Part shown: positions 28,312 to 31,852 of the stretch, piece by piece
Position numbering within the stretch: the stretch's first letter is position 1
Layout of the letters: each line of letters begins with the position of its first letter
NCBI GenBank assembly: GCA_019637675.1
Contig: JAHBVE010000002.1
Location: 207,797-271,796, forward strand
Length of the DNA: 64,000 nt
Reading direction: 5' to 3'
Source: Anaerolineales bacterium
GTDB lineage: Bacteria; Chloroflexota; Anaerolineae; Anaerolineales; UBA11579
Position numbers and translations under genes: made by a program
The notes under the pieces: generated by a model
Told to the model about the DNA's origin: nothing
Seen by the model: the letters and a program-made list of their open reading frames with translations, nothing else
Database searches by the model: none

Positions 28312-30153
<1,842 letters not shown>

Positions 30154-30583
30154 ATGAAGAATCCTCCAACTATGTCTACAGGCCGCTGCTGGAGCGTTTG
30201 TCCGCATGGTTGCCCACGCGGCGTTGTGCGCCAGCTCTATCTTGGAGGGAAGTTCGGGGGCGGGTCTCCCGGAGGGCATCCGCTGATCTTCGCAACTGCG
30301 CCGCCAACTGCGTTGTCGGGCTTGTTGCTTATGGCGTTCCGCAAAAGCGGCGGAACGCCATACTTATTCGATTTTCACGGCCGCTAGGCCGCTTATCTTT
30401 GCCGTGAGGCAAGGCGAATGCGCCTTTTGCATTCGCCCGCGCTTACCTGCCAACGGCTTTGCCGTTGGCCGTAAGCGCAAGAACCACTCAACCTCGTCAC
30501 CCGGCATTGCCGGGCCGTGCGCTATTCCCTCGGTGTCAGTTAGCTTCGCTTTGTCTCTATTCACCTCATATTTAACTGGAGTG
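30154..30583 (-). promoter_or_regulatory. Long, hairpin-dense 5' leader of glmS. It is an unconfirmed glmS-ribozyme candidate or another structured RNA.
   Basis: Six near-contiguous stem-loops in plus-strand coordinates: 30331-30361 (12 bp), 30378-30391, 30397-30414, 30413-30437 (9 bp), 30439-30478 (17 bp), 30500-30514. On the minus strand, GACGAGG lies at 30492-30498 and AGCGGAUGCCCUCCGGG at 30268-30284, resembling glmS ribozyme core blocks. I could not assemble the full core. Confidence 0.35.
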
Positions 30584-30589
30584 GGCATG

Positions 30590-30595
30590 ATTATA
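30590..30595 (-). promoter_or_regulatory. Candidate glmS -10 element (TATAAT on the minus strand)
   Basis: Perfect TATAAT. The nearest -35-like TTGAAC is 20 nt upstream, which is too far. It lies back-to-back with the mreB promoter candidate. Confidence 0.3.
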
Positions 30596-30646
30596 CCCAG
30601 CACCTGGCCCAAATTGTTCAAGCCGGGTGAACGCCGGCCGGCTGCA

Positions 30647-30655
30647 TGGTAAAAT
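30647..30655 (+). promoter_or_regulatory. Extended -10 promoter (TGgTAAAAT) for mreB
   Basis: TGGTAAAAT about 132 nt upstream of the mreB ATG. The leader contains the hairpin CACCCTGCC-CC-GGCAGGGTG (30739-30758). Confidence 0.45.
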
Positions 30656-30787
30656 CACTTGATTTTCTGCAAGGTCTGCCGTACGTTCATACGCTGCCTA
30701 CTTCAATAATGAAGAAGTTGCTTACACCACAAGAGCTTCACCCTGCCCCGGCAGGGTGCTTTACATTGGTATACCCGCGGGGTACCC

Positions 30788-31852
30788 ATGGCCTTTAACC
30801 CCCTCAACTGGATCCTCGGTTTTTTCTCGCTTGATATTGGCATTGACCTTGGCACCGCCAACACCCTGGTGTTCGTGCGCGGCAAGGGCATCGTCATCAA
30901 CGAACCTTCCTGGGTAGCGGTGGAGAAGAAGTCCCTCATCCCCATCATGGTGGGCGACAAAGCGGCCGTCGGCCAGGTGGCCAAAGAAATGTCTGGCCGC
31001 GCCCCCAAGAATGTGATGGTCGTGCGCCCGTTGCGGGATGGCGTGATTTCGGAATTTGAGATCACCGAAGCCATGCTGGCCCACTTCATCGGCAAAGCCC
31101 ATGAGCAGAGCATTGTGCCTCTCCCCCGTCCCCGCGTTGTGGTTGGCGTGCCCACTGGCGTGACCGAAGTCGAGAAACGCGCCGTCAACGACGCGGCCCT
31201 GCTGGCCGGCGCCCGCGAGGTCTACTTGATCGAGGAGCCTACAGCCTCCGCCCTGGCGGTTGGCCTGCCCATCAACCAAGTGGGCGGCAGCGTCGTACTC
31301 GATATTGGTGGTGGCACCTCAGAGGTGACTGTTTTCTCGCTGGGCTCTGTCGTGGCCAATCGCAGCCTGCGCGTCGCAGGTGACGAGCTTGACCAGGCCA
31401 TCGTGCAATACATTCGCAATAAGTACAACATCCTCATCGGTGAACGTGCTGCCGAGCAGGTAAAGATCAAAGTTGGCTCGGCCTTTCCCCTCAAGGAAGA
31501 GAAGACCACCACGGTACGCGGCCGCAACCTGGTCAGCGGCCTGCCGGAAACGCTGGAGATCTCCTCCATTGAGATCCGTGAGGCACTGAGCGGCCCGGTG
31601 GACCAGATCATCCAAGCTGTCAAAGAAGCCCTGGATGATGTGCCCGCTGAAATGGTGGGCGATGTAATGGACAACGGCGTGTGCATGTGTGGCGGCGGCG
31701 CCTTGCTGCAAGGCCTGGCGGAGCGCCTTAGCGATGAACTGCGCCTACGCTGCTGGGTGGCAGATGACCCGCTTACCTGCGTGGCGCGCGGCGCCGGCTT
31801 GGTGCTGGATGATCTTGAGGGATACCGCCACTTCCTGATCCAGATGGATTAA
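30788..31852 (+). CDS. mreB: Rod shape-determining protein MreB
   Basis: IDLGTANTLV and DIGGGTSEV actin-fold motifs; 354 aa. Confidence 0.93.
   Translation: MAFNPLNWILGFFSLDIGIDLGTANTLVFVRGKGIVINEPSWVAVEKKSLIPIMVGDKAAVGQVAKEMSGRAPKNVMVVRPLRDGVISEFEITEAMLAHFIGKAHEQSIVPLPRPRVVVGVPTGVTEVEKRAVNDAALLAGAREVYLIEEPTASALAVGLPINQVGGSVVLDIGGGTSEVTVFSLGSVVANRSLRVAGDELDQAIVQYIRNKYNILIGERAAEQVKIKVGSAFPLKEEKTTTVRGRNLVSGLPETLEISSIEIREALSGPVDQIIQAVKEALDDVPAEMVGDVMDNGVCMCGGGALLQGLAERLSDELRLRCWVADDPLTCVARGAGLVLDDLEGYRHFLIQMD

Follow-up and report, generated by a model that had tools for sequence, protein, structure and literature searches.

What kind of RNA is encoded by the long, hairpin-rich leader of glmS in the Anaerolineales genome from which the 64,000-nt stretch analysed here (hereafter the window) was taken? 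An earlier note on this DNA, made from the letters alone, described glmS and mreB as diverging across 634 bp, which is confirmed by gene calls and by TIGR01135 and TIGR00904 matches (glmS on the minus strand, mreB on the plus strand), and it left two readings of the glmS leader side by side: a glmS ribozyme bearing insertions, or a different regulatory RNA. In this study, we propose that the minus-strand segment 30183-30531 is very probably a complete glmS ribozyme-riboswitch of an Anaerolineae type, situated within the 5' untranslated region (UTR) of glmS. All coordinates are positions in the window, and glmS, its leader and the ribozyme lie on the minus strand. Judged from sequence, each structural criterion that was tested places the element among the glmS ribozymes, the Rfam score excepted.

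The exception is explained by the length of an insert. When all Rfam families were scanned over the whole window, RF00234 did not recognise the leader at its gathering score (37 bits), and an RF00234 search of the whole genome agrees in finding no glmS ribozyme at that score. A scan of 30050-30900 at E-values up to 10 returned only chance-level fragments (sucA 15, GadY 15 and glmS 11 bits). The Rfam check proposed in the earlier note gives a divided answer, failing on the window itself and succeeding on orthologous leaders of glmS whose inserts measure 41-116 nt, for which RF00234 scores 55.5, 45.5, 41.5, 40.6 and 37.6 bits; six further orthologous leaders reach 27-37 bits. The alignments of these orthologues to RF00234 leave a long unaligned stretch between the 5' strand of P2 and GCGGAUGCC, and there is no valid full-length match in glmS leaders with an insert of at least 155 nt. 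At the gathering score, three of the 15 scanned genus genomes are recognised but none of the seven large-insert members, the window's genome among them; RF00234 fails on the window because of the insert length. Nhmmer profiles built from relatives, with the subclade of the window excluded, were searched against the 2.25-Mb genome and find both halves of the ribozyme in the window, the 5' half at 30487-30528 (E = 3.3e-7) and the 3' half at 30177-30290 (E = 7.7e-18).

The two blocks that the earlier note had likened to the glmS ribozyme core turn out to be exactly the two stretches conserved in distant relatives. What is retained of the spacer in more remote genus members, and in further families of the order, is approximately 30194-30294 and 30480-30534, at a variable distance from each other. 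GACGAGG stands precisely where it had been reported, and as regards the P2.2 pseudoknot this strand is intact; the other block, AUCAGCGGAUGCCCUCCGGG, is also present, at 30268-30287 of the minus strand, three nucleotides away from the position assigned to it earlier. The pairings that could not be built at the time, P2, P3, P3.1, P4 and P4.1, are all found and covary (Table 1). In an alignment of 38 Chloroflexota sequences with the insert spliced out, 79.7% of the cells of the proposed core are paired, compared to 65.3% for shuffles, of which none in 500 attains this level, and to 36-48% when the partners are slid. P1 is paired to 96.6% with changes on both sides in six of its seven pairs, P3 to 87.5%, again with changes on both sides, and P3.1 to 86.2% with changes on both sides in three of four pairs, while the P4/P4.1 domain has such changes in all 15 pairs across the relatives. 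P2 appears as GAGGG/CCCUC, GAAGG/CCUUC, GGCGG/CCGCC or GACGG/CCGUC. All tested core helices are intact, and P1, P2, P3, P3.1, P4 and P4.1 covary. AGCGC at the cleavage site is unchanged across the aligned relatives and is followed by A as the fifth base of the motif in 36 of 38; the whole Anaerolineae group carries GCGCA, compared to GCGCC in canonical ribozymes, and the partner G has likewise changed to A. The insertion-bearing ribozyme is borne out by the relatives' Rfam matches above the gathering score and by this covariation. There is no need to invoke a different regulatory RNA: Rfam offers no match to another family, and every hairpin falls within the P2 domain or is P1. The outcome that the earlier note would have taken as adverse was a short UTR with a transcription start close to glmS, combined with neither Rfam match nor conservation; the leader is strongly conserved and its relatives have Rfam matches.

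A class-wide pattern scan of 401 genomes was too unspecific for statistics, and its reversed-pattern control also matched often; among the matches listed, recognisable ribozymes span 65-167 nt, compared to 249 nt in the window. An exact 13-mer spanning part of the leader and the cleavage site, GGGAAUAGCGCAC, has a second copy at 2777-2789 of the window (minus strand). This copy is judged to be due to chance, lying within a coding region with no other ribozyme motif nearby.

A distinguishing property of the ribozyme is its P2 domain. The distance between GACGAGG and GCGGAUGCC amounts to 208 nt in the window and to about 21 nt in the Rfam consensus. Elsewhere, a canonical-like Chloroflexota sequence (L066) has 21 nt and the majority of Anaerolineae 41-118 nt; distances of 155-258 nt are confined to the seven-species subclade of the window. 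Short-insert Anaerolineae share the order P2, UU, hairpin A, CUAAG, hairpin B, GAAAAUCGA(A), AGAUCA, GCGG. The subclade has hairpins A1 to A3 in place of the single hairpin A of its relatives, shares hairpin B with most Anaerolineae, and accommodates hairpins C and D in the loop of a short P2a stem (AUC/GAU). In the window, all six of these hairpins fold independently. The six stem-loops enumerated in the earlier note are all there, and on the glmS strand the 208-nt stretch folds with a z-score of -7.0 relative to dinucleotide shuffles, none of 200 shuffles being as stable; the sixth of these stem-loops is, however, P1 of the ribozyme (7 bp) and no part of the insert. The tandem repeat observed at 30293-30312 consists of two copies of CAACTGCG (30293-30300 and 30305-30312) and belongs to a further hairpin, D. 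It also holds that the hairpins lack a U-tract: no terminator-like site with a U-tract is present on the glmS strand.

The inserted hairpins occupy homologous positions in the subclade, and 14 of 70 RNAalifold pairs show double changes that keep the pairing, for instance GCGCUUAC/GUAAGCGC against GCGCAAGC/GCUUGCGC in A1 and GGCGAAUGC/GCAUUCGCC against GGAGAAACG/CGUUUCUCC in A2. Hairpins have also been gained and lost within the subclade, with one species having no hairpin C and two having an extra hairpin. In our interpretation, the insert consists of lineage-specific expansion segments on the P2/P2a junction that are selected as RNA structure, and it is neither a mobile element nor a second riboswitch.

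Several points weigh against a functional ribozyme. RF00234 gives only two 11.3-bit fragments in the window (E about 5.6), one of them spanning 30197-30220. The window's P2 has a bulged U (GAGUGG/CCCUC), and P2.1 is limited to three pairs followed by an A/A mismatch; because these CGC/GCG pairs are unchanged in 38 of 38 sequences they are uninformative, which leaves P2.1 without covariation support. Moreover, a 208-nt insertion within the catalytic domain could slow or impair folding. The failure of Rfam, the bulge and the short P2.1 would also suit a decayed ribozyme in which insertions have killed catalysis and the leader persists as a structured UTR or a relic. We consider such decay very unlikely, since all seven large-insert species retain AGCGC, GACGAGG, GCGGAUGCC, the GNRA loop of P4.1 and the ACAAA block, which a relic is not expected to do at an overall identity of about 70%. 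In addition, P1, P3.1, P4 and P4.1 show compensatory changes in species with inserts of 155-258 nt, and GCGCA with its A/A mismatch is also found in relatives scoring above the Rfam gathering score.

The hairpins might also be more than a passive scaffold and constitute a separate functional module, i.e., a second sensor, a protein-binding platform or a target of small RNAs. The invariant single-stranded linkers AGAUAAG, GAAAAUCGAAUA and AGAUCA between the hairpins, together with the folding stability and the compensatory changes described above, are in line with this idea. Yet, hairpin sequence, length and number differ among close relatives, the invariant linkers are present in short-insert ribozymes and in part in canonical ones (AUCGA), and no Rfam family matches within the insert; expansion segments account for such variation better than a ligand pocket does, and we regard a separate module as improbable. 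A mobile origin, in which palindromes resembling repetitive extragenic palindromes or miniature inverted-repeat transposable elements are intergenic by chance, is hardly credible. The inner A1 hairpin GCCAACGGCTTTGCCGTTGGC (30449-30469) does recur as an exact 21-mer on another contig, after the stop codon of a groEL-like gene (C1:267118-267138; L004:1501-1521), and the genome contains other arrays of GC-rich hairpins. BLAST of the insert and of the 634-bp spacer against the 2.25-Mb genome, however, revealed no recurrence except this single hairpin, and in seven species orthologous modules occupy syntenic places within the ribozyme. The groEL-side copy is the first of three successive hairpins preceding a terminator, with an RNase J gene starting about 360 nt beyond; its resemblance to A1 may reflect copying of small hairpin modules between sites, or chance. 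Finally, the hairpins could serve mreB on the other strand, either as an element upstream of that gene or as an antisense RNA, and the plus strand indeed folds equally well (z = -8.5), as perfect palindromes would. We give this almost no credence: G-U pairs favour the glmS strand (57 versus 20 in the folds of the subclade, 127 versus 76 across 42 sequences), folding is more stable on the glmS strand for six of the seven inserts of the subclade, and the hairpins would lie outside the mreB transcript because the mreB promoter candidate is located downstream of them on the plus strand.

Table 1. Features of the glmS leader and its flanks in the window, ribozyme elements in the order of the transcript (the arrow marks the predicted cut)
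Feature	Position	Strand	Sequence or support
Leader strand, pairs with J3/4 UUCCCUC as P0, bridging the cleavage site	30525-30531	-	GAGGGAA
Cleavage motif, predicted cut between A30523 and G30522	30517-30523	-	A↓GCGCAC
P2.1, 5' strand	C30521-C30519	-	
P1 hairpin	30499-30515	-	GCCCGGC-AAU-GCCGGGU
Core motif	30492-30498	-	GACGAGG, unchanged in 38 aligned relatives
P2-domain region, 208 nt	30284-30491	-	
P2, 5' strand	30484-30489	-	GAGUGG
Hairpin A1	30439-30478	-	8+9 bp
Hairpin A2	30412-30438	-	9-10 bp
Hairpin A3	30400-30411	-	4-5 bp
Hairpin B	30377-30392	-	5-6 bp
Invariant linker	30365-30376	-	GAAAAUCGAAUA
Hairpin C	30330-30362	-	13-bp stem
Hairpin D	30292-30328	-	contains the CAACTGCG tandem repeat
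Core block	30275-30283	-	GCGGAUGCC, unchanged in relatives
P2.1, 3' strand, within the core block	30281-30283	-	GCG
P2, 3' strand	30272-30276	-	CCCUC
P3 hairpin	30255-30271	-	CGGG...CCCG
P3.1, 5' strand, in the P3 loop	30260-30263	-	CCGC
Extended J3/4	30242-30251	-	UUCCCUCCAA
J3/4, part pairing with the leader	30245-30251	-	UUCCCUC
J3/4, part complementary to the ribosome-binding site	30242-30248	-	CCUCCAA
P4, enclosing P4.1 and GGACAAA	30188-30235	-	GCUGGCGC/GCUCCAGC
P4.1, GNRA loop GCAA	30203-30220	-	CGCGUGG-GCAA-CCAUGCG
Junction segment within P4	30197-30203	-	GGACAAA
P3.1, 3' strand, pseudoknot with the P3 loop	30183-30186	-	GCGG
Ribosome-binding site, 9 nt before ATG	30163-30169	-	UUGGAGG
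glmS coding sequence, 613 amino acids, N-terminus MCGIVG	28312-30153	-	TIGR01135, 768 bits (cut-off 418)
Shine-Dalgarno-like motif in the 5' leader, no plausible open reading frame after it	30561-30567	-	GAGGUGA, conserved in the genus
Probable glmS -10, inside GGTATAAT (30590-30597)	30590-30595	-	TATAAT, conservation
Probable mreB extended -10	30647-30655	+	TGGTAAAAT, conserved in several genus sequences
mreB, ATG	30788	+	TIGR00904, 416 bits

A second particularity concerns J3/4, which is extended and complementary to two different stretches of the message. The 7-9 nt just 5' of the cut can pair with it in a helix that we call P0. Its sequence varies among relatives while the complementarity is kept (GAGGGAA/UUCCCUC, GGAGAGA/UCUCUCC, GGGAAAGAU/AUCUUUCCC, GCAUGG/CCAUGC, GACAGAU/GUCUGUC and GAGGAAAGA/UCUUUCCUC). 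Duplexes of the leader with its own partner have a mean of -11.7 kcal/mol, compared to -7.7 kcal/mol for shuffled leaders, with p <= 0.05 in 29 of 46 sequences. In a 12 x 12 swap between divergent types the own partner is best in five rows, and an anchored count gives a weaker signal (67.4% paired versus 63.9% in shuffles, reached by 5 of 500). Adjoining the P0 stretch, CCUCC(AA) in J3/4 is complementary to the ribosome-binding site of glmS, i.e., its Shine-Dalgarno (SD) sequence. The two pairs flanking CCUCC/GGAGG covary (A-U in 13 cases, G-C in 7, U-A in 3, unpaired in 10), and the covariation score of 0.103 exceeds the 0.060 of shuffles (0 of 500 reach it); the support is moderate because a slide by one column scores equally well.

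In the window, both conserved helices overlap by 4 nt, which would allow a cleavage-coupled shut-off of translation, i.e., a ribozyme with its own expression platform. Before cleavage, the leader strand would hold J3/4 and keep CCUCCAA off the ribosome-binding site; after cleavage, the leader would be detached and J3/4 would sequester UUGGAGG, so that translation would stop beside decay by RNase J. To our knowledge, no expression platform is known for glmS ribozymes. A nearest-neighbour model of the window agrees with such a switch, as the predicted probability of the J3/4-SD helix is 0.65-0.68 when the leader is absent and 0.0 when it is present. However, models of 46 sequences give the SD sequence little accessibility whether the leader is present (0.19) or absent (0.12), and in many relatives as well as in a paralogous family of ribozyme-like RNAs (see below) the two helices abut and do not compete. 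The abutting arrangement would rather suit a J3/4 that only splints the 5' and 3' flanks together, and we put the shut-off forward as a tentative and somewhat doubtful model.

The paralogous family is represented in the same genome by a second RNA resembling the glmS class, on contig C2 at 420592-421062 (minus strand; L001/L106), which lies outside the window and does not precede glmS. It comes with a separate promoter (TTGACA-17-TATAGT) and reads A↓GCGGCUGG with GCGG in place of GCGC and UACGAGG in place of GACGAGG; its P2 insert of 145 nt contains the linker motifs named above. J3/4 of this RNA, UUUCUCCCCUUCCAAA, is paired to the leader GGAGAA as well as to the downstream UUUGGAAGGG; the helix between J3/4 and the downstream sequence (CCCUUCCAAA/UUUGGAAGGG) covaries in relatives. 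An intrinsic terminator (AUGGGCACGCCCUGCGUGCCCAUUUUU) follows, and then an open reading frame of 459 amino acids with a weak match to the Pfam family Glu_synthase (PF01645, 23.7 bits). The element is kept in at least eight relatives from the genus and two other families; in two of these relatives RF00234 scores 52.9 and 50.0 bits. Genome G021, which represents a different family within the order, has a 6S RNA gene (RF00013, 65.6 bits; L110:1159-1335) immediately upstream of its paralogous element (L110:1393-1613).

The back-to-back promoters of glmS and mreB had been proposed in the earlier note and are probable, being backed by conservation. The minus-strand TATAAT falls within GGTATAAT, which is unchanged in 16 of 16 aligned genus sequences. 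A generic promoter scan missed it because the -35 candidate, TTGAAC, is 20 nt upstream, an unusual spacing. The plus-strand candidate for mreB is conserved in several genus sequences and reads ATTTTACCA on the opposite strand in relatives. The true start of glmS is the ATG at 30153-30151, and open reading frames within the leader run through the palindromes and have no support. The SD-like motif of the 5' leader, situated about 40 nt upstream of the cut, is kept genus-wide as (G/U)GAGGUG and appears as GGAGGUG in relatives. It could be a candidate 5' stabiliser of the STAB-SD type that shields the uncleaved mRNA from RNase J and is lost on cleavage.

From these elements, a course of regulation can be proposed by analogy with known glmS ribozymes. 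Transcription would start a few nucleotides past the conserved -10 element, and the RNA would adopt the double-pseudoknot core fold, from which the extra hairpins would stick out at the P2/P2a junction. Glucosamine-6-phosphate (GlcN6P) is likely bound as a cofactor, upon which the RNA would cut itself between A30523 and G30522. The message with its 5'-OH end would then be degraded by RNase J, and GlmS synthesis would fall, closing a negative feedback loop. Catalysis, ligand, cleavage position and feedback are likely by homology, and decay of the cleaved message by RNase J is likely from the genome context, as this nuclease is encoded in the genome (583 bits, cut-off 400). Decay by RNase J1 after glmS cleavage is the published route in Bacillus subtilis (PMC10810187).

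In summary, the observations made here comprise homology, anatomy, covariation in both the core and the inserted hairpins, the strand under selection and the absence of repeats, and they describe a catalytic P1-P2 domain that tolerates an insertion longer than the canonical ribozyme with every core element still under selection. The seven-species subclade thereby offers a natural test case for the effect of peripheral RNA on double-pseudoknot folding. It also exposes an annotation blind spot, as large-insert glmS ribozymes escape the Rfam gathering score. With P0 bridging the cut and J3/4 complementary to the SD sequence, direct translational control by a glmS ribozyme becomes testable against RNase J decay alone. 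We did not find the peculiarities of the window described in the full-text literature, although the main consensus and structure papers may mention them.

Compared to known systems, the element is closest to the glmS ribozymes. Like the canonical representatives of RF00234 (B. subtilis, B. anthracis, Thermoanaerobacter tengcongensis), it resides in the glmS 5' UTR on the same strand and combines A↓GCGC, P1, GACGAGG, P2, GCGGAUGCC, P3 with the P3.1 pseudoknot, P4/P4.1 with a GNRA loop, and GGACAAA, and it is expected to work likewise, by GlcN6P-dependent cleavage and subsequent decay through RNase J. It differs from them by a roughly ten-fold expansion of P2 (208 versus about 21 nt), by GCGCA with an A/A mismatch replacing the fourth P2.1 pair, and by a J3/4 extended by about 15 nt, which pairs with the leader lying 5' of the cut and shows complementarity to the ribosome-binding site as well. 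With the Anaerolineae-type ribozymes that have two hairpins in P2 (L012-L023, L025-L069) it shares the layout, GCGCA, the leader-J3/4 helix and the CCUCC element. Unlike these, the subclade of the window has A1-A3 for A and, in addition, C and D, which brings its inserts to 155-258 instead of 41-118 nt, and only here is the Rfam match wholly lost. The J3/4 pyrimidines, which can pair with either a purine-rich upstream strand or the ribosome-binding site, recall the SD, anti-SD and anti-anti-SD platforms of translational riboswitches; in the window, however, the upstream competitor is situated beyond the self-cleavage site and would leave by cutting instead of ligand-induced refolding. The added hairpins, in turn, are similar to the peripheral helices of group I introns and RNase P and to the expansion segments of rRNA, where lineage-specific, variable hairpins are placed at a tolerated site and maintained by compensatory changes around a constant catalytic core. 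Different from those large-ribozyme expansions, the site in the window is part of the P1-P2 core domain, the ribozyme is a small regulatory one, and the RNA added there exceeds the canonical ribozyme in length.

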